The notes under the pieces: generated by a model
Databases searched by the model: none
The model's input: only the letters and a program-made list of their open reading frames with translations
What the model was told of the DNA's origin: nothing
In this document: positions 1 to 48,813 of the stretch, one piece after another
How positions within the stretch are numbered: position 1 is the first letter of the stretch
Layout of the letters: each line of letters begins with the position of its first letter
NCBI GenBank assembly: GCA_947628905.1
Contig: CANRBQ010000004.1
Location: 1-48,813 of the forward strand
Direction: 5' to 3'
From: an uncultured Bacilli bacterium
GTDB lineage: Bacteria; Bacillota_I; Bacilli_A; RF39; UBA660
DNA length: 48,813 bases
Translations under genes and position numbers: made by a program

Positions 1-1464
1 ACTAAAAAAGTATTATTAGTTTTAGTTGTATTAGTAGCAATAACAACAACTATAGTTTCTTTAAGTTCAAGAGCAAAGTATCAAGTAACTAGTAGTGTTC
101 AAATAGTAAAAGGTAAAGTATCATATCAACCATATGATTTTAAGATAGTAAAAATATACCAAGAAAATGATACAGGAAGTTATGATGAAGTAGATGAAGT
201 ACCAACAACAGAATATGAAATAAATGAAGAAGATAGTAAATGTATGATAGATGATAATACCAAAGATACAGAAGCAATATTAAAAACAATAAATGGTAAT
301 CATACATTTGCTAATCTAAAGAAGATGGATAAGTGTACTGTATATTTTAGTAAAATTCCAACTCCAGAAGATACATTAGCTCAATTAAATAAAGCAAGTG
401 AAAAAGGAACAACAGATGGTTTTACAAATATGGATACAACAGAACATAAAAATAATGAAAAAACAATTATGTATAGTGATGAAGATGATTTAGGAACAAC
501 ATACTATTTTAGAGGCAAAGTAAAAGATAATTGGGTTAAGTTTGGAAAAGAAGGTAATGATGATATATGGTGGCGAATCATCAGAATCAACGGCAATGGT
601 TCAATAAGGATGATATATGCTGGTAAAGGAACTAGTGCTCCAACAAGTGATGGATATTTAAACAATAATAGAACAGGTAGTCAATTACAAATAAGTGGAT
701 ATAATACGTATTCTAATGATAATAAATATGTAGGGTACATGTATGGAACAGATAAAACAGGCAGCGCCACTAAAGAAACCACCCCAACAACTAGTTATGA
801 TCAAGCGCATACTAATAATTTTGATAGTGATATTAAAAAAATATTAGATAATTGGTATAATACTAATCTAAAAACAGAATATGGAAAATACATAGATTCA
901 AATGCTGGATTTTGTAATGATAGAAAAATAGCAACAATAAGTATAAATGACTATGGAACAGAAGGATATGGAAGTTATTCAACAGTATATATAGCAGAAG
1001 ACAGATTAATAAATACAAATTGGAATGCTAATACAAAACATACTCCAACATTCAAGTGTAGTGAAAGATTTAATATATTTTCACTTCCAGGAGCACAAAA
1101 ACCAAATGGAGAAGATTATGGAAATCATAAATTAAGAGCTAACAATGGAACAGGAGAAAATAGTCCAATAGGATTAATAACCATAGATGAAGCAGTATTT
1201 GCAGGAGGATACTATTCTAGACTAGATAATCAATCCGATAATACACAATTTTACTTATATACAGGACAAACTTATTGGACCATGACTCCAGCTTACTTCA
1301 GCATTTACGGCTATGCTACCATATTCATTATACATAAGAATGGCTACCTTGTTGACAATGGTGTGAGCAGTGGGAATGGTGTTCGCCCAGTAATAAATCT
1401 CTCTGCTAATGTTAAATTATCAGGTGAAGGAACATACACCAACCCATATACAATTTCTGATTAA
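1..1464 (+). CDS. 5'-truncated secreted/surface protein, paralog of 34464..35933, with DGR-target-like (CLec/DUF6273-like) C-terminus
   Basis: Frame is open from base 1 (TKKVLLVLVVLVAITTTIVSLSSRAKYQVTSSVQIVKGKVSY), so the true start is upstream of the window, not at 244. Shares the motifs DDLGTTYYFRG, WRIIRINGNGSIRMIY, PIGLIT.DE and WTMTP...GVRPVINL with the paralog. Confidence 0.8.
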   Translation, partial: TKKVLLVLVVLVAITTTIVSLSSRAKYQVTSSVQIVKGKVSYQPYDFKIVKIYQENDTGSYDEVDEVPTTEYEINEEDSKCMIDDNTKDTEAILKTINGNHTFANLKKMDKCTVYFSKIPTPEDTLAQLNKASEKGTTDGFTNMDTTEHKNNEKTIMYSDEDDLGTTYYFRGKVKDNWVKFGKEGNDDIWWRIIRINGNGSIRMIYAGKGTSAPTSDGYLNNNRTGSQLQISGYNTYSNDNKYVGYMYGTDKTGSATKETTPTTSYDQAHTNNFDSDIKKILDNWYNTNLKTEYGKYIDSNAGFCNDRKIATISINDYGTEGYGSYSTVYIAEDRLINTNWNANTKHTPTFKCSERFNIFSLPGAQKPNGEDYGNHKLRANNGTGENSPIGLITIDEAVFAGGYYSRLDNQSDNTQFYLYTGQTYWTMTPAYFSIYGYATIFIIHKNGYLVDNGVSSGNGVRPVINLSANVKLSGEGTYTNPYTISD

Positions 1465-1495: not shown

Positions 1496-1565
1496 CTTGC
1501 TCATATTGCTCTAAATTTTTATGTATGGGCAGGAAATATATGCAGGGCTCTCTCCTTGCATTTTT
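1496..1565 (+). ncRNA. conserved 3' structured element: 10-bp stem-loop plus terminator-like hairpin (copy 1)
   Basis: Stem 1496-1505/1524-1533 with loop starting TTGCTCTAA; hairpin 1541-1547/1554-1560 followed by T5. Homologous to 34375..34446 on the minus strand. Confidence 0.6.
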
Positions 1566-9792: not shown

Positions 9793-12612
9793 TTACTTAA
9801 CCACAATATTAACTATTTTCCCTTTAATAACAATTATTTTAACTATATCTTTACCATCTGTATGTTTCTTAACATTTTCATTATTTAAAGCTTTATCTTT
9901 AATACTTTCCTCATCTTCATCTGCTTTAACAGTAATTTCTCCTCTAAGTTTTCCATTAACTTGTACTCCAATTGTAACTTCATCATCAACTGTTTTAGCT
10001 TCATCATATGTTGGCCAATCCATTGCCGCGATATGTTTAGTATAACCAATCTCTTCATTTAATTCTTCTGTAATATGTGGAGCAATTGGATTTAATAAAA
10101 CTAATAATGTTTGATAATCTTTTTTAGTTATTTCTTTTTTATCTTCATAATTATTTGCTAAAATCATCAAACTAGAAACTGCTGTATTATATTTCATTGT
10201 AGCTAAATCATTAGTTACTTTTTTTATTGTTTTATGAATAATATTTTCTAAATCTTTTGAATATTCTTCTTTATCATTAATCTTTTCTTTTAATTTAATT
10301 ACTCTATCTAAAAATCTTTTACAACCTTTAAGCCCTTCATTACTCCATGGAATATCTTTTTCATAATCTCCCATGAACATTTCAAATAGTCTTAAAGTAT
10401 CTGCTCCATATTTATTTACAACATCAACTGGATTAATTCCATTTCCTTTAGATTTACTTATTTTAGTTCCATCTTCCGCTAAAATCATTCCATGAGCAAC
10501 TCTCTTTTTAAATGGTTCTGGTGTAGGTACTAATCCTTGATCATAAAGGAATTGATGCCAAAATCTTGCATAAAGTAAATGTCTTGTTGCATGTTCCATT
10601 CCCCCATTATAATAATCTACCATTCCCCAATACTTAAGAGCATCTTGCCCCACAAATTCTTTATCATTATGAGGATCCATATAGCGTAGCCAGTACCAAC
10701 TAGAACCAGCCCAGTTAGGCATTGTATCAGTCTCTCTTTTGGCCATTTTACCACACTTAGGACAAGGAGTATTAACCCATTCTGAAATATTGGCAAGTGG
10801 TGATTCTCCTGTATCTGTTGGTTCATAATGAGCAACTTTAGGAAGTAAAACTGGAAGTTCTTCTTCTGGTACAGGAACCCAACCACAATCTTCACAATAA
10901 ATCATTGGAATAGGTTCACCCCAGAATCTTTGTCTTGAAAATATCCAATCTTGTAAACGATAATTAACTGTTTTTTTACCAACTTTTTTCTCTTCTAAAA
11001 ATTCAAGCATTCTTTTAATAGCGGCTTCTTTATTAAGACCATTTAAGAAATCTGAATTAATATGAATGCCATCTCCCACCATAGCTCCAGGATTTAAAGC
11101 ATACATAAATGTTTTAGAGTGTAGTTCATCCTTAATTTCTTCTAAAATTGTTTTTTTATCTACCCATTCACAATCAAATTTTTCATCTGCATCTAAAGAC
11201 TGCGAATCTTGTTCATAATTATCTAATTCAAAATATAAACCTGTAGAATTAATATTAAAATATTTATCTTTATTATAAGCATAATAATGATGATTAATAA
11301 TTGGTAAAGTATATTTTAATGTTAAATTCTTATAACCCGTTTCTTCTTTTATTTCTCTAAGAGCACAATCTAATGGACTTTCATTTTCTTTAATTGTTCC
11401 TCCTACAAATAAACGTCCTCCTAATTCATGCCAATTAATAGTTAAATACTTATTTTCTTTTTTATCATAAACAATAGCAACGATAGAATTTTTCTTAACT
11501 TCATCTTTATTAGGAGTACCAGTTTCTTCTGCTAAAACCTGAATAATAGGTATATTAAATTTCTTAGCAAAAGCATAATCTCTCTCATCATGGGCAGGAA
11601 CTGCCATGATTGCTCCAGTTCCATAAGAAGCTAAAACATAATCACTTATATATATTGGTATTTCTTCATTATTAACTGGATTTATTGCTACTAAACCTTC
11701 TAATTTAACTCCAGTTTTATCTTTTGTTACATCAGTTCTTTCTATTTCACTTTTTTGTCTTGCAGCTTCTTGATAAGATTCTACTTCTGAAATATTTTTA
11801 ATTCTATCTTTATATTTTGTAAGAAAATCATGTTCTGGTGACATAACCATAAAAGTTACTCCAAATAAAGTATCACATCTCGTAGTAAATACTTTTAATA
11901 CATCATCAGTATCTTTAAGTTTAAAATCTACTTCAGCCCCAATACTTTTACCTATCCAATTTATTTGAGCTGTTTTAATTTTTTCTTCAAACTCTGTATC
12001 TTTAAGCCCATCAAGTAATCTATCTGCATAATCACTCATTCGTAAAATCCACTGTGATTTTAACTTTTTAGTTACAACTGAACCACATCTCTCACAAACT
12101 CCTCCTGCAGCATCTTCATTAGAAAGTCCTGTTCTACAATTAGGACACCAATTTATTTCTTTTAAAGCTTTATAAGCCATTCCCTTTTTTACAAATTGTA
12201 AAAACTGCCACTGTGTCCATTTATAATATTCTGGATCTGTTGTTGCAAACTCTCTTGACCAATCAAAAGACATACCTAAAGCCTCAATTTGTCCTTTAAA
12301 AGTTTTAATATTTTCCTTTACAGCATCTGCTGGATATATATGATTTTTTATCGCATATTGTTCTGCTGGAGCCCCAAAAGCATCCCATCCCATTGGAAAT
12401 AAAACATTATACCCTTGTAAACGTTTCATTCTAGCCATTGCATCTAATGCTGAATAACTTCTAACATGCCCCACATGTAAACCTGATCCACTTGGATAAG
12501 GAAATTCTACTAATATATAATATTTTTCTTTATTCCCCCCATTTTTAGCTTCAAAATAATGGTTATCAGCCCATATTTTTTGCCATTTTTTTTCTACTTC
12601 TTTTGTATTCAT
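9793..12612 (-). CDS. leuS: leucyl-tRNA synthetase with inserted Nudix domain
   Basis: FPYPSGSGLHVGH, GWDAFG, FTTRCDTLFG, GTGAIMAVPAHDERD, DWIFSRQRFWGEPIP, KISKSKGN. Confidence 0.98.
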   Translation of the reverse strand: MNTKEVEKKWQKIWADNHYFEAKNGGNKEKYYILVEFPYPSGSGLHVGHVRSYSALDAMARMKRLQGYNVLFPMGWDAFGAPAEQYAIKNHIYPADAVKENIKTFKGQIEALGMSFDWSREFATTDPEYYKWTQWQFLQFVKKGMAYKALKEINWCPNCRTGLSNEDAAGGVCERCGSVVTKKLKSQWILRMSDYADRLLDGLKDTEFEEKIKTAQINWIGKSIGAEVDFKLKDTDDVLKVFTTRCDTLFGVTFMVMSPEHDFLTKYKDRIKNISEVESYQEAARQKSEIERTDVTKDKTGVKLEGLVAINPVNNEEIPIYISDYVLASYGTGAIMAVPAHDERDYAFAKKFNIPIIQVLAEETGTPNKDEVKKNSIVAIVYDKKENKYLTINWHELGGRLFVGGTIKENESPLDCALREIKEETGYKNLTLKYTLPIINHHYYAYNKDKYFNINSTGLYFELDNYEQDSQSLDADEKFDCEWVDKKTILEEIKDELHSKTFMYALNPGAMVGDGIHINSDFLNGLNKEAAIKRMLEFLEEKKVGKKTVNYRLQDWIFSRQRFWGEPIPMIYCEDCGWVPVPEEELPVLLPKVAHYEPTDTGESPLANISEWVNTPCPKCGKMAKRETDTMPNWAGSSWYWLRYMDPHNDKEFVGQDALKYWGMVDYYNGGMEHATRHLLYARFWHQFLYDQGLVPTPEPFKKRVAHGMILAEDGTKISKSKGNGINPVDVVNKYGADTLRLFEMFMGDYEKDIPWSNEGLKGCKRFLDRVIKLKEKINDKEEYSKDLENIIHKTIKKVTNDLATMKYNTAVSSLMILANNYEDKKEITKKDYQTLLVLLNPIAPHITEELNEEIGYTKHIAAMDWPTYDEAKTVDDEVTIGVQVNGKLRGEITVKADEDEESIKDKALNNENVKKHTDGKDIVKIIVIKGKIVNIVVK

Positions 12613-32898: not shown

Positions 32899-33552
32899 AT
32901 GAAAGAAAAATTTATAGCTTTTTTAAAAGGTTTTGGCACAATTTTATTATATATTTTAACCGCGAGTATAGGTTCTCTGTTATTTGGAGATTTCTATGAA
33001 AGTTCTAATAAAATAATTGCTACTTTTGCTCAATTAGGAACTTATACTCTATTATTATTAGTACTTACTATTACTTATCATAAACGTCTCATAAATGACT
33101 TTAAAAACTATAAAAAAGACTATTTTAATAAAGCATTAAAAGATTGGTTATGTGGCTTAGCACTTATGATTATAAGTAATTTTATAATTAGTGATATTGT
33201 AGGTAATATACCTACTAATGAAGCTTTAAATCGTAGTTTATTATTAAAATATCCTATAAGTAATATTATAAGTATGGTATTTATAGGTCCGATTATTGAA
33301 GAAATAACTTTTAGAGCTAGTTTCAAAAATGCTTTTAATAAATGGTATACTTTTTCTTTATTCACAGCTATAATCTTTGGTTTAGCTCATATTGCTAAAT
33401 TTAATTTATTAGAATTTTTATATGTAATACCATATGGCGCTTTAGGATTCTTTTTTGCTAAAGCATTTTATGAAACAGATAATATATATTCATCTTTTTT
33501 AATTCATATGTTACATAATGCCATGTGTATTATTATCATATTTATTTTATAA
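32899..33552 (+). CDS. CPBP-family intramembrane glutamic endopeptidase
   Basis: GPIIEEITFR, FGLAH, HMLHN; likely start 32899. Confidence 0.9.
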   Translation: MKEKFIAFLKGFGTILLYILTASIGSLLFGDFYESSNKIIATFAQLGTYTLLLLVLTITYHKRLINDFKNYKKDYFNKALKDWLCGLALMIISNFIISDIVGNIPTNEALNRSLLLKYPISNIISMVFIGPIIEEITFRASFKNAFNKWYTFSLFTAIIFGLAHIAKFNLLEFLYVIPYGALGFFFAKAFYETDNIYSSFLIHMLHNAMCIIIIFIL

Positions 33553-33563
33553 GAGGTAATTCT

Positions 33564-34376
33564 ATGACTGAAAAAAAACATACAGTAATTAAAATTATAG
33601 CTATCTTAATAATTATTATATTTATACTTTATTTATATGCTAGATATATTAATCCTATAAGCTTCAAAGTAATTGAAACCCCAATTTATGATACTAATTT
33701 AAATGAAAATTATAATGGTTTAAAAATAGCTCATTTATCAGATATTCATTATGGAAGAACAACAACAGAAGATAATTTAAAAAAAATAATTAAAGAAATA
33801 AATAAATTAAATGCAGATATTATAATATTTACTGGAGATTTATTTGATTATAAAAAAATATCTAAAGAAGATAAAGATTTAATGATCAAATATTTAAAAA
33901 AAATAAATTCTAAACTTTATAAATTTGCTATTATAGGTGATTATGATGAATTATATTTAAGTGATTATACAGAAATATTAACAGAATCTAATTTTATTTT
34001 ATTAAATAATACTTCTAAATTAGTTTATTATAATAATTCTACTCCTATAAATTTTATAGGCTTAACTAACACAGAAAATATTGAAGAACTATATAACAAT
34101 GATTATTATAATATTACTCTTATTCATAAACCAGATTTAATTAAAGATATTAAAAACACTAATTTAGCTTTTGCTGGTCACTCTTTAGGAGGACAATTTA
34201 AGATTCCTTTTATTGGTGGCATAAGAAAAATAGAAGGAGCAGAAACATACATTGATAATTACTATAAAATAAATAATACTAAACTCTTTATTTCTAATGG
34301 TATAGGAACACAAGATATAAGTCTAAGATTATTTAATACTCCATCAATAACTCTATATAGATTATATAATAACTAA
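33564..34376 (+). CDS. membrane-anchored metallophosphoesterase (YkuE-like, degenerate motifs)
   Basis: HLSDIH, FTGDL, HKPD, AGHSLGGQ, ISNGIG; likely start 33564. Confidence 0.82.
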   Translation: MTEKKHTVIKIIAILIIIIFILYLYARYINPISFKVIETPIYDTNLNENYNGLKIAHLSDIHYGRTTTEDNLKKIIKEINKLNADIIIFTGDLFDYKKISKEDKDLMIKYLKKINSKLYKFAIIGDYDELYLSDYTEILTESNFILLNNTSKLVYYNNSTPINFIGLTNTENIEELYNNDYYNITLIHKPDLIKDIKNTNLAFAGHSLGGQFKIPFIGGIRKIEGAETYIDNYYKINNTKLFISNGIGTQDISLRLFNTPSITLYRLYNN

Positions 34377-34446
34377 AAAAGCGAGGAGAAACCCCGCATG
34401 GAATTTAATCTTGCCCAAGAATATAAGTTAGAGCAACTTAGGCAAG
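34375..34446 (-). ncRNA. conserved 3' structured element (copy 2)
   Basis: Minus strand: CTTGCCTAAG-TTGCTCTAACTTATATT-CTTGGGCAAG ... GCGGGG-TTTCT-CCTCGC-T6. Confidence 0.6.
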
Positions 34447-34463: not shown

Positions 34464-35933
34464 TTATTGAACTATATATGGATTAGTGTATGTACCATCA
34501 CCTGATAATTTCACATTAGCAGAGAGGTTTATCACAGGACGAGCACCATCAGTATTATACATAGCATCAGGTTCAATACCATAATTCAGACAAAAAACCT
34601 CTGCATATACACTTAACCTATATGGAGACATAGTCCAACTACCAGCGTTTGTATATAAGTAAAATTTTCTATTATTTGTTGAATCATCAGATTTGCGTCG
34701 ATAACCTCCTGCAAATACTACTTCATCTGCTGTTATCAAACCAATTGGGCTATTATCTCCTGTTCCATTGTTAGCTCTTAATTTATGATTTCCATAGTCA
34801 CTTCCATCTAGTTTTTGTGCTCCTGGAAGTGTAAATGTGTCATTTATTTGACTACATTTAAACGTTGGAGTATTTTTTTCATTTGCTTCTCCATTTGAGT
34901 TTGAAAATCTACTCATTGGGGCATAAGCAGTTTCTTCTTTTTTATATCCTTTTGCTGTATCATCTTTCCACCATTGATTTGGAGTTGTATTAATTTGTCT
35001 ATCATTGCAAAATCCAGCATTTGAATCTATATATTCTTCATATTCTGCTTTTAGATTTGAACTATACCAGCTATCTAATTTTTTCTTTATTGTACTATCA
35101 TTTTCATTTTTGTGAGTGTCCTCATATTTACTTGATCCTGATGTTCCATACATATATCCTACATAAATATTATCTGAAGAATAAGTTGAATTATATGAAA
35201 CATTCTGTAAAGTACTTTTATATCCATTATTATTTAAATATCCATCATCTGTTGGGATAGTAGTTCCAGTTCCAGTATATATCATTCTTATTGAACCATT
35301 ACCATTTATTCGAATAATTCGCCACCATATGTCCTCACTTCCTACTTTTCCAAACTTTACCCAATTGTCTTTTACTCTTCCTCTAAAATAGTATGTTGTT
35401 CCTAAATCATCTTCATCACTATATAATATAGACTTGTCATTTTCCCCTATATGTTCCTCAACATCCATATCTGTAAAACCGTCTTTATTACCTTCCTCTA
35501 TTGTTCTATTTGCTAATAGTTGTTCTCTAGCGTATACGTACATATCTAAATAAACATAACATTTAGTACCTTTTTTAGTTATACTTATGCTTACTTTTCC
35601 ATCTTTATATTCCATTGGTATATCTTTATGTTGTATATTATCTCCTGGAATTGTACAGTAACTTTTTTCTTTATTTAATTCATAACTCCCTTTTGGTACT
35701 TCATCAGTTGGATTATATGTCTCACTATATTCAGATTCTTGTACTTTTAAAGCTACAACATTTAAATCTGCTAAACTATAACTAACTTTTCCTTTAACTA
35801 TTTGAATATTACTTGTTACATGATATTTTGCTCTACTATTTGTTATATATATTATTCCCATTAACAATACTAATATTGTTATAACTAATACTATTTTCTT
35901 TTTTCTTCCTTTACTTAACTTCTCTATCCTCAT
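34464..35933 (-). CDS. secreted/surface protein, paralog of 1..1464
   Basis: N-terminal TM/signal helix plus SRAKY..IVKGKVSY; same core motifs; C-terminus WTMSP...GARPVINLSANVKLSGDGTYTNPY. Confidence 0.85.
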   Translation of the reverse strand: MRIEKLSKGRKKKIVLVITILVLLMGIIYITNSRAKYHVTSNIQIVKGKVSYSLADLNVVALKVQESEYSETYNPTDEVPKGSYELNKEKSYCTIPGDNIQHKDIPMEYKDGKVSISITKKGTKCYVYLDMYVYAREQLLANRTIEEGNKDGFTDMDVEEHIGENDKSILYSDEDDLGTTYYFRGRVKDNWVKFGKVGSEDIWWRIIRINGNGSIRMIYTGTGTTIPTDDGYLNNNGYKSTLQNVSYNSTYSSDNIYVGYMYGTSGSSKYEDTHKNENDSTIKKKLDSWYSSNLKAEYEEYIDSNAGFCNDRQINTTPNQWWKDDTAKGYKKEETAYAPMSRFSNSNGEANEKNTPTFKCSQINDTFTLPGAQKLDGSDYGNHKLRANNGTGDNSPIGLITADEVVFAGGYRRKSDDSTNNRKFYLYTNAGSWTMSPYRLSVYAEVFCLNYGIEPDAMYNTDGARPVINLSANVKLSGDGTYTNPYIVQ

Positions 35934-35957: not shown

Positions 35958-36024
35958 TTACTCAATTATATTAGAAATTTCTAACTTATACTAAAATTAT
36001 AATCTAATGAATGTCAAAAGTCAA
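35958..36024 (-). promoter_or_regulatory. sigma-A promoter plus conserved leader with palindromic operator (copy 1)
   Basis: TTGACT, 17 nt, TATAAT; palindrome TTAGAAATTTCTAA at 35971-35984; 35958-36006 is identical to the reverse complement of 48765-48813. Confidence 0.85.
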
Positions 36025-36099
36025 GAAAAAGTTGGCTATTTCGGCACTATGATTTTAAGAATTCAAATTTAATGAGACAATTATTTTAGGTGATTAAAA

Positions 36100-36555
36100 T
36101 TGGAATATGGTATTAAAATGAAAGAAATAAGATTAGAAAAGAAAACTAGCCAAAAAGAAATTGCAAATTACTTAGGTATATCCCCAATAACTTATAGTCA
36201 TTATGAAACACAAGATACAACAATACCTATTAAACATTTATATAATTTTTGCAATTATTTTAATAGTTCAATTAATTATATATTTAGTTTTTCAAATATA
36301 AAATATGGAAAATATAATAACGAAAAAATTAATAAAACAATTTCTGGCGAACGACTAAAAAATTTTAGAAAAGAAAACAAACTGACTCAGAGTAAACTTG
36401 CCAAAACCCTAAATACTGATAAAACCGTAATATGCAATTATGAAAAAGGCAAAAATATTATTGCTACCCCATTTCTATATTCTTTATGTAAAAACTATAA
36501 AATATCAGCTGATTATCTTTTAGGAAGAACAGACTTTCCTAAATATTTAAAATAA
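36100..36555 (+). CDS. tandem (double) XRE HTH regulator
   Basis: Two HTH_3-like repeats; TTG start after AGGTGA; paralog of 48217..48672. Confidence 0.88.
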   Translation: MEYGIKMKEIRLEKKTSQKEIANYLGISPITYSHYETQDTTIPIKHLYNFCNYFNSSINYIFSFSNIKYGKYNNEKINKTISGERLKNFRKENKLTQSKLAKTLNTDKTVICNYEKGKNIIATPFLYSLCKNYKISADYLLGRTDFPKYLK

Positions 36556-48216: not shown

Positions 48217-48672
48217 TTAATTAATCTTCTTAGGATTATCTATTCTACCCAACAAATAGTCAGCAGACATTTTATAATTATCACATATTGTATATAAAAA
48301 TGGTGTAGGAATAAGTCTTTTTCCCTTTTCATAATCCGACAAAACAGACTGTGTAGTATTTAATAATTCACTTAATTTTTCTTGAGTAAATCTATTTTCT
48401 TTTCTAAAAGCCCTTAATCTTTCACCACTTTTCTTAAGATCAAAACCTTTAAAACAGTTATTATAATTCCTAGATTCACAAAAACTAAAAATATAGTCTA
48501 AAGAAACATTAAAATAATCACACAATACAATTAAATGTTTAATCGGAATTACTAAATCTTCTTTTTCATAATGACTATATGTTCCACTATCAAGATTAAT
48601 CATCTCCCCCGCTTTCCTTTGAGTTAAACCTTCCCTATTTCTTAAACTTTCCAATCTTTCTCTATAAAGCAT
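48217..48672 (-). CDS. tandem (double) XRE HTH regulator
   Basis: Two HTH repeats; TYSHYE..IPIKHL and GERL..FRKEN..TQ..SADYLLGR shared with 36100..36555. Confidence 0.88.
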   Translation of the reverse strand: MLYRERLESLRNREGLTQRKAGEMINLDSGTYSHYEKEDLVIPIKHLIVLCDYFNVSLDYIFSFCESRNYNNCFKGFDLKKSGERLRAFRKENRFTQEKLSELLNTTQSVLSDYEKGKRLIPTPFLYTICDNYKMSADYLLGRIDNPKKIN

Positions 48673-48746
48673 TTAAAATCACCATTATAATTCTTTCATA
48701 TCTAAGTTATAATGTCACATTTTACTGGAATTATACGATATTTTTC

Positions 48747-48813
48747 TTGACAATTTACACTTGCTAGATTATAATTTTAGTATAAGTTAGAAATTTCTAA
48801 TATAATTGAGTAA
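48747..48813 (+). promoter_or_regulatory. sigma-A promoter plus conserved leader with palindrome (copy 2), pointing out of the window
   Basis: TTGACA (48747-52), 17 nt, TATAAT (48770-75); TTAGAAATTTCTAA at 48787-48800. Confidence 0.85.

Follow-up and report, generated by a model that had tools for sequence, protein, structure and literature searches.

The stretch of 48,813 nt analysed here, called the window in the following, is chromosomal DNA of a very A+T-rich bacterium and carries two paralogous genes in inverted orientation, 33 kb apart, each of which is followed in its 3' untranslated region (3' UTR) by an element consisting of a hairpin, a linker and a terminator hairpin. The gene of copy 1 (positions 1-1464, + strand), recognized as a DUF6273 paralog by its translation and by PF19789 in its homologs, has its first 30 nt just beyond the window edge, and the gene of copy 2 (34464-35933, - strand), a further DUF6273 paralog, is complete with 489 aa; both proteins have a membrane anchor at the N-terminus. 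The family is very large, with more than 6,500 database relatives and PF19789/DUF6273 in some of them, and its nearest genomic relatives are found in metagenome-assembled genomes (MAGs) of uncultured gut 'Bacilli', 'Tenericutes' or 'Mycoplasma sp. CAG:776', which often hold at least ten paralogs per genome.

The element in the two window copies

In copy 1, hairpin 1 (1496-1533, + strand; 11 bp including G-U in the predicted fold; 51.8 bits with a covariance model) is composed of the 5' arm CTTGCTCATAT (1496-1506), a loop of 16 nt (1507-1522) and the 3' arm GTATGGGCAGG (1523-1533), followed by the linker AAATAT (1534-1539) and by hairpin 2 (1540-1565), a terminator with the stem-loop ATGCAGGG/CCTTGCAT at 1540-1561 and a T tract to 1565. 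The same order is seen on the - strand in copy 2, where hairpin 1 (34410-34446; 10 bp in the predicted fold; 51.4 bits on the - strand versus 19.4 bits on the + strand) consists of the 5' arm CTTGCCTAAG (34446-34437), a loop of 17 nt (34436-34420) and the 3' arm CTTGGGCAAG (34419-34410), the linker AUUAAAUUCCAU occupies 34398-34409 and hairpin 2 (34375-34397) has its stem-loop GCGGGG/CCTCGC at 34397-34381 with a run of six T up to 34375. The folds of both copies comprise two hairpins, with z-scores of -4.3 and -4.2 against dinucleotide shuffles. An earlier note made from the sequence of the window had described these two-hairpin elements, which sequence and fold prediction confirm in both copies, and had read the differences between them as compensatory, correctly so, stem 1 having U-A replaced by A-U and A-U by G-C, and stem 2 A-U by G-C. 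The sequence TTGCTCTAA occurs at two places in the window, exclusively within the two elements, the chance expectation for the combined stem-and-loop pattern is 0.00, and the first nine loop nucleotides (UUGCUCUAA) are common to both copies.

Hairpin 2 has the properties of an intrinsic (Rho-independent) terminator in both copies, with a stem sequence that is not conserved across loci. No consistent internal promoter was found for the elements of the window. A small open reading frame (ORF) antisense to copy 2, with an ATG preceded by GAGGAG on the opposite strand, was considered and dropped, as copy 1 has no equivalent ATG.

Hairpin 1 across the gene family

Relatives of the family were collected on stretches of genomes and metagenomes, labelled with L numbers, and a covariance model was run on the window (with filters off) and on 854 kb of genome loci and 572 kb of metagenome loci. 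A total of 28 copies of hairpin 1 lie behind DUF6273 paralogs in uncultured gut Bacilli, in addition to two free-standing copies, and the element follows directly after the stop codon in about a third of the paralogs (approximately 27 of 87 paralog 3' ends on 80 related loci). Strong matches of the model, which include the second paralog of L057 and L144, are located directly behind DUF6273 paralogs only, except for the two free-standing sites, and score 46-59 bits on the sense strand and 17-32 bits on the antisense strand.

When 23 copies were aligned, 97.6% of the stem-1 cells were paired and eight of the 11 base pairs changed on both sides, values that none of 500 shuffles reached and that slid registers remained far below, so that the covariation between two copies on which the earlier note had relied holds in the wider family. 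The non-Watson-Crick cells are 21 G-U pairs, the outer ten pairs being devoid of A-C, with all other mismatches confined to six cells of the innermost pair. Since G-U is tolerated without A-C and the sense strand scores higher, it is the sense strand that folds, in the form of RNA or perhaps of the corresponding single-stranded DNA. Stems in the family have 10-12 bp, about half of them G-C, and loops of 13-20 nt that start with (U)GCU. Conserved are the stem base CUUGCC/GGCAAG and a GC(U) exactly 7 nt past CUUGC, with the remaining loop not conserved; of the invariant loop start claimed from the two window copies, the family thus keeps (U)GCU, always equally far from the stem start, and not the full UUGCUCUAA. 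At L004 (1512-1629), an A/T-rich insertion of 94 nt in the hairpin-1 loop, missed by the covariance model, leaves a perfect stem of 12 bp in place.

No RNA family described in Rfam accounts for the element. At the gathering threshold of Rfam 15, a tRNA was the sole match in the window, and permissive scans of both copies gave best scores of 24.8 and 18.4 bits versus thresholds of 46.5 and 65. By these comparisons hairpin 1 is a family-specific, previously undescribed RNA structure, in agreement with the proposal of an unnamed conserved structured 3'-UTR element behind the paralogs; stem 1, with its family-specific covariation, also exceeds what a terminator needs. That the whole would represent a generic double terminator or an intergenic repeat of the repetitive extragenic palindromic (REP) type, a possibility the earlier note had itself raised against its motif, is barely credible. 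Hairpin 2 is indeed an ordinary intrinsic terminator of varying sequence, but hairpin 1 has no U tract, covaries in a family-specific manner and was never encountered behind an unrelated gene in the window and about 1.4 Mb of related DNA; in viral contigs, a stem-specific pattern gave 40 hits, about the estimated chance level, none of which was a true match of the model.

A second conserved element was noticed right after the stop codon of some paralogs. It consists of a small covarying stem (CUAC/GUAG, CUGC/GCAG) with the loop GUAUGG and continues with CUUCAAGGAGUGUAG(A/C)G(U)GGUGGUUCAAAAUG, and it is present at L005 (7597-7700), L016 (3513-3600), L021 (7567-7680), L022 (2935-3030), L045 (7408-7470), where it stands 5' of hairpin 1, and L071 (7288-7380).

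Complementarity to the start regions of sibling genes

The loop of hairpin 1 and the linker, both unpaired in the predicted folds, were scored by duplex energy against 55 start regions of the family and 490 control start regions from the same loci. Family genes start with M-E/K-F/I-E-T/K-L, encoded by ATG RAR WTW GAR..., and the corresponding reverse complement of AUG-RAR-UUU, AAAYUYCAU(G/U), is present in half of the linkers. For copies located in 3' UTRs, four lineages have a best same-genome partner that outscores 490 of 490 controls, the duplexes beginning between -1 and -4 relative to the AUG; these pairings are copy 2 with copy 1 of the window, L002/L003 with L045, L012/L044 with L053, and L024/L040/L077 and L032/L078 with L016, the start region of which is identical to that of L073.

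The 5' end of copy 1 was obtained from contigs of the rabbit-gut sequencing runs that contain the window. A contig of 123 nt, identical to window positions 1-32 with 0 mismatches, continues upstream with ATGGAATTTAATAAGTTAGGGCATAATAAT and reads ...AAAAATGGAATTTAATAAGTTAGGGCATAATAAT, translated as MEFNKLGHNN; a second variant of the copy-1 5' end, ...GAGTCATGGAATTTGTAACATTGAAAAAGG, translated as MEFVTLKK as in P0009, can still form 10-11 bp with the copy-2 linker. The region of the copy-1 5' UTR and first 12 codons contains AAAAAUGGAAUUUAAUAAGUUAGGGCAU. In computed duplexes with the first variant, the copy-2 linker AUUAAAUUCCAU forms 12 bp with the start codon and codons 2-4 of copy 1 (AUGGAAUUUAAU) at -12.7 kcal/mol (z = -4.0), which none of the 490 controls equals, and the copy-2 loop segment UGCUCUAACUUAU (34423-34435, - strand) forms 13 bp including one G-U with codons 4-8 of copy 1 (AUAAGUUAGGGCA) at -17.7 kcal/mol (z = -6.2), better than all 490 controls; the best partners of this loop elsewhere are the orthologous genes of L045 and L037. 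Jointly, the two blocks span +1 to +23 of the copy-1 mRNA. In loops of the W1/W2 type in general, the 5' half (U[UC]GCUCUAA...) is complementary to AAGUUAGAGCG, codons 4-8 of the target of the linker, a U/C difference in the loop matching an A/G difference in the target. The loop faces the 3' segment and the linker the 5' segment of the target, in the correct antiparallel order and contiguously on the target.

Linkers and targets also change together. Where codon 2 of the target is GAA, GAG, AAG or AAA, it faces UUC, CUC, CUU or UUU in the linker, and over nine linker/target pairs 82% of the cells are paired, versus at most 50% when the partner is slid, with seven of 15 positions changing on both sides; the covariation score was reached by none of 500 shuffles. 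Overall, complementarity to start regions holds for about 60% of the elements. Against the own start region, the loops of 19 loci reach a mean of -8.8 kcal/mol versus -7.4 kcal/mol for shuffled loops, a small effect that derives from W1/W2-type loops. The protein or small RNA (sRNA) binding site that had been suggested for the element can accordingly be recast: rather than a passive site, the element, with its unpaired parts complementary to sibling starts, looks like an antisense RNA itself.

As an observation in its own right, the first seven codons (M-E/K-F/I-E-T/K-L-K/N; ATG RAR WTW GAR ANN TTA AA) are kept across paralogs that are otherwise 30-40% identical, for example at window 35933 (- strand) and at position 6001 of L045, L073 and L025. 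This conservation may reflect a constraint at the RNA level in the form of an sRNA target site, a secretion signal or both.

Several points weigh against an antisense role. For about 40% of the elements (L046/L068, L058/L144, L001, L028), the sampled starts include no convincing target, and the type of L011/L014/L043/L057 is only partly complementary. The copy-1 linker (AAAUAU...) has no UUCC core and no complementarity to a start codon, its duplex energies being no better than with control genes, and the copy-1 loop reaches about 8 bp only; because the copy-1 linker matches nothing, the predicted relation in the window is directional, of copy 2 on copy 1. When loop and linker were compared with 48 start regions inside the window, none scored above shuffled probes; the target was not found there because the copy-1 start lies just outside. 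The partners are furthermore the best of three to nine candidates per genome, which entails a selection bias, and A/U-rich sequence inflates complementarity. A duplex of 11-13 bp within a closed loop of 17 nt is topologically strained, such that the hairpin might have to open. Constraint on the protein could also account for the conserved N-terminus (M-E/K-F/I-E-T/K-L), and the complementarity might have been left over from a gene start that was duplicated in inverted orientation.

Free-standing copies

In two different MAGs (L019 and L075), a syntenic hairpin-linker-terminator unit lies between rpe and an ORF of 150 aa, which is followed by mutS. These copies are preceded by the promoter motif TTGACA-16-TATAAT, with 12 of 12 consensus positions and the TG of an extended -10 element, and have a terminator of their own, after which a second promoter serves the next ORF; in their anatomy they look like independent sRNA genes. 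Their linkers give a median duplex energy of -10.5 kcal/mol with the 55 family starts versus -6.1 kcal/mol with the 490 controls (p ~1e-18), the best partners being at -1 to -3 relative to the AUG, and match the start consensus of the family over about 18-20 nt.

The order of promoter, hairpin, terminator and gene at L019/L075, upstream of the 150-aa ORF and mutS, resembles a leader, and the element might have been an attenuator that controls read-through into the downstream gene. We regard this as improbable, as a second promoter stands between terminator and ORF, hairpin 1 and the terminator do not overlap, so that no antiterminator alternative exists, the downstream genes differ at every paralog locus, and both genes 3' of the window copies are convergent, that behind copy 1 at 1604-2098 and that behind copy 2 at 33525-34376 on the + strand.

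The free-standing copies bear equally on a reading at the DNA level, according to which short inverted matches between 3' flank and 5' start would promote inversion or gene conversion and reshuffle the paralogs. In its favour, the 3' flank of copy 2 holds two blocks (12 and 13 nt) of the first 23 nt of copy 1 with one T-for-C difference in the second, the paralogs are inverted at a distance of 33 kb and the contig breaks within a repeated module. Such a recombination site is nevertheless improbable: the matches tolerate G-U, which equals T/C mismatches in DNA, the blocks of identity are short and split by a hairpin arm, stem 1 folds on one strand only, and the free-standing copies are framed by promoter and terminator and not by a gene start.

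Of two libraries labelled as RNA, one gives a hint on expression. The other, a run that contains part of L019, covers it within the neighbouring ORF only. At L058 (836-1089), from a wastewater library labelled RNA-Seq, a contig that spans the 3' end of a paralog together with hairpin 1 and the terminator ends inside the T tract, and the next contig begins 11 nt on; this end is compatible with a transcript 3' end, which is suggestive and not decisive.

Relation to diversity-generating retroelements

Diversity-generating retroelements (DGRs) generate huge variation in ligand-binding proteins. The most variable block of the family alignment, which lies just before the conserved motif GVRPVINL, corresponds in copy 1 to a hypervariable stretch (1264-1389, + strand) that resembles a DGR variable region (VR) and ends at GGTGTTCGCCCA. 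In relatives, the block equivalent to the VR matches AAC-rich template repeats (TRs), with mismatches biased to TR adenines (23 of 28 mismatches for TR1 of L026), although no TR/VR pair differs at adenines only. Eleven non-coding TR units were recognized in relatives, with an AAC-rich TR-like sequence that ends in GGTGTGCGCCCA and is accompanied by a conserved tail of about 130 nt and, in many cases, by a terminator, and L078 (10113-11562) encodes an RVT_1 reverse transcriptase of the DGR type with the motifs IGNxxSQ (GLPIGNMTSQ) and YMDD. Neither a TR nor a reverse transcriptase was found in the window itself. Judged by the TRs and the DGR-type reverse transcriptase of the relatives, the paralogs are probably DGR-type targets.

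The TR units, among them L026 3421-3720 and 4291-4600, L037 1740-2390 and 5260-5590, L005 7820-8445 (- strand), L021 7772-8100, L006 374-700, L050 3631-3980 and L049 1-290, have no adjoining reverse transcriptase and number up to three per locus, an unusual, dispersed multi-TR arrangement; at L005 and L021 they lie just downstream of the element with the GUAUGG loop. Their 5' GGTTAATCT can pair with AGATTAAT(C) in the tail of about 130 nt. A possible kinship of hairpin 1 with a CUUG(Y) loop that occurs in this part of the TR RNAs was considered and rejected, the loop not being conserved across TR units. The reverse transcriptase gene of L078 is preceded by an overlapping ORF of 117 aa, a size like that of Avd, and is located 4 kb downstream of a paralog with the hairpin module.

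Against this background, hairpin 1 might be thought of as a DNA hairpin or cruciform which marks a DGR target for mutagenic retrohoming, as in Bordetella phage BPP-1, a role that the earlier note had offered as one option. The probable DGR-type nature of the genes, with TRs and a reverse transcriptase in relatives, is in line with such a role, as is the lack of any other inverted repeat nearer to the VR end. The published target hairpin has a GC-rich stem of 7-10 bp and a GRNA loop of 4 nt and lies 4-34 bp downstream of the VR 3' end, and two additional nucleotides in the loop of the BPP-1 hairpin abolish its function (PMC3240598). Hairpin 1, on the other hand, starts at 1496 and 34446, at distances of 106 and 89 nt from the point where VR/TR homology stops, which was placed at GCGCCCA (1389 in copy 1 and 34536 in copy 2) by analogy with the TR/VR pairs of relatives. 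Its loop has 13-94 nt, its stem is not GC-rich and it folds on the sense strand only. About 70% of the paralogs have no hairpin 1, including a paralog of L026 with a plain terminator only at 2.5 kb from two TRs, and hairpin 1 is present at two sites without any VR; since these free-standing copies have no VR, the module needs no variable region. Distance, the size of the loop, strand asymmetry and distribution thus contradict a retrohoming hairpin in four of its defining features and make it highly improbable, which implies that inverted repeats located 3' of DGR targets should not simply be taken for retrohoming hairpins.

A proposed antisense mechanism

From the sequence comparisons we propose, as a reading with an even chance of being correct, that the element is an antisense RNA, borne by 3' UTRs or free-standing, which would cross-repress translation among paralogs. 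Its observed basis is the structure of hairpin 1, its strand specificity and its association with one gene family, the complementarity to start regions together with its covariation and, for the free-standing copies, the motifs of promoter and terminator. In the proposed mechanism, the mRNA of a paralog would end in a module of hairpin, A/U-rich single-stranded linker and Rho-independent terminator, of which hairpin 2 would only terminate transcription, and hairpin 1 would be a scaffold for presenting the antisense segments and protect the 5' end, maybe acting also as a protein-binding or processing site. The acting form might be the full mRNA or an excised sRNA of about 70-80 nt. Its linker would pair with the AUG and codons 2-4 of a sibling and, in some types, the 5' half of its loop with codons 4-8, and pairing at the start of the sibling would block ribosome binding and/or trigger decay. 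The expression of one paralog would thereby repress another, in the window copy 2 repressing copy 1, and in some related species the module would act as a free-standing sRNA gene with a linker complementary to the start consensus shared by all family members. Beyond the sequence features, it is our inference that the RNA is transcribed, processed and paired inside the cell and that the pairing regulates the target.

Hairpin 1 might alternatively be a determinant of 3'-UTR stability or processing or a protein-binding site only, for example a barrier to 3'-exonucleases or the site of a dedicated RNA-binding protein for which the free-standing copies would be decoys, with the complementarity as a functionless relic. 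Such a role is possible, though doubtful. The stem base (CUUGCC/GGCAAG) and the fixed (U)GCU resemble a recognition surface, and the absence of a detectable target for about 40% of the elements and of any complementary partner found for the copy-1 linker would fit. On the other hand, the linker covaries with start codons of the same genome across lineages, the linker of the free-standing copies fits the family start consensus with the significance over controls given above, and the duplexes lie consistently on the AUG.

Provided the antisense reading is correct, all modules might jointly constitute a genome-wide network of RNA cross-repression, in which start codons of selected siblings would be shut off by the mRNA tails of expressed paralogs and, in some species, by a single master sRNA. 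This extension is tentative and rather improbable at present, but if true it would impose hierarchical or mutually exclusive expression on dozens of surface proteins diversified by DGRs and amount to a bacterial analogue of allelic exclusion that operates through 3' UTRs. To our knowledge, almost nothing is known about the choice of which diversified DGR paralogs cells express, and we are aware of virtually no regulatory RNAs in uncultured gut Bacilli with reduced genomes. From these organisms a new structured RNA family has been obtained, predicted to be an example of an sRNA that occurs both as a free gene and inside the 3' UTRs of the family it targets. The hypothesis that paralogs communicate through their mRNA tails is testable by ordinary reporter assays.

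Genomic surroundings

The window encodes leucyl-tRNA synthetase, class I lysyl-tRNA synthetase, FeoB, YfhO, a LytR-family protein and an MMPL transporter; the leucyl-tRNA synthetase (9793-12612, - strand) has a NUDIX domain (residues 377-494) inserted after its editing domain. Sequencing runs that contain the window are rabbit and other gut metagenomes only, all of them DNA runs, and a plasmid collection searched with the gene and its tail gave no match.

Divergent from copy 2, a regulator with two helix-turn-helix (HTH) domains of the XRE type (36100-36555, + strand; Pfam) belongs to a duplicated module that comprises paralog, tail, divergent double-HTH regulator and the intervening promoter region, and a paralogous double-HTH regulator at 48217-48672 (- strand) was assigned by Pfam and repeat comparison. 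Pairing of each paralog with one or two divergent proteins of two XRE-type HTH domains is also seen elsewhere, for example at L026 (4698-5165 and 5289-5756), and these proteins are probably locus-specific regulators of transcription.

The contig starts 30 nt inside copy 1, its last 73 nt (48741-48813) are 90% identical to the copy-2 promoter region (35958-36030), and in the source metagenome two to three sequence variants of the copy-1 5' end join window positions 1-32. The variants of the 5' end and the repeated contig ends therefore indicate that the assembly broke in a repeated or strain-variable module.

Comparison with known systems

In CopA/CopT and RNAI/RNAII, a loop presents the antisense sequence and an adjacent single-stranded segment extends the pairing, the RNAs being cis-encoded and fully complementary. 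The module resembles these systems in its antisense sequence located in a hairpin loop and an adjoining single-stranded segment, and differs in that it is trans-encoded with two short complementary segments split by a stem arm.

In icaR of Staphylococcus aureus, a UCCCC motif of the 3' UTR blocks translation by pairing to the Shine-Dalgarno sequence in its own mRNA species (PMC3868564). Common to icaR and the module are the Gram-positive host and the pairing, predicted for the module, of an mRNA 3'-UTR sequence with a translation initiation region. Unlike in icaR, the predicted pairing of the module covers the AUG and first codons, mainly of a different paralog, and the module is bipartite with loop and linker in some types, has a conserved hairpin-linker-terminator architecture and occurs also as a separate gene.

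Base-pairing sRNAs derived from 3' UTRs form a general class with its own maturation (PMC8625941), and regulation of one mRNA by another has been described for hly/prsA2 in Listeria (PMC8722363). With these the module shares the terminator of the coding gene, a single-stranded seed next to the terminator hairpin and pairing in trans with other mRNAs, the latter being predicted here. Whereas 3'-UTR-derived sRNAs comprise one sRNA per locus, the module is found with dozens of paralogs, each variant seed tracking the start of a sibling, and in contrast to known 3'-UTR sRNAs its family consists of surface proteins that are probably DGR-diversified.

With the hairpin of the BPP-1 mtd DGR, the module has in common an inverted repeat 3' of the VR, in which the sequence of the stem is free and its structure kept, with partial conservation of the loop on the sense strand; it is set apart by its distance, the size of its loop, GC content, distribution, G-U pairs on one strand and copies without VR (PMC3240598). 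A literature search yielded no paper that links DGR variable proteins with control by sRNAs. Compared to icaR, hly/prsA2 and the sRNAs derived from 3' UTRs, which it resembles in its proposed mechanism, the so far undescribed RNA family differs in its predicted aim at sibling paralogs, the bipartite pairing predicted for some types, its multiplication across a probably DGR-diversified family and its additional occurrence as a free gene.

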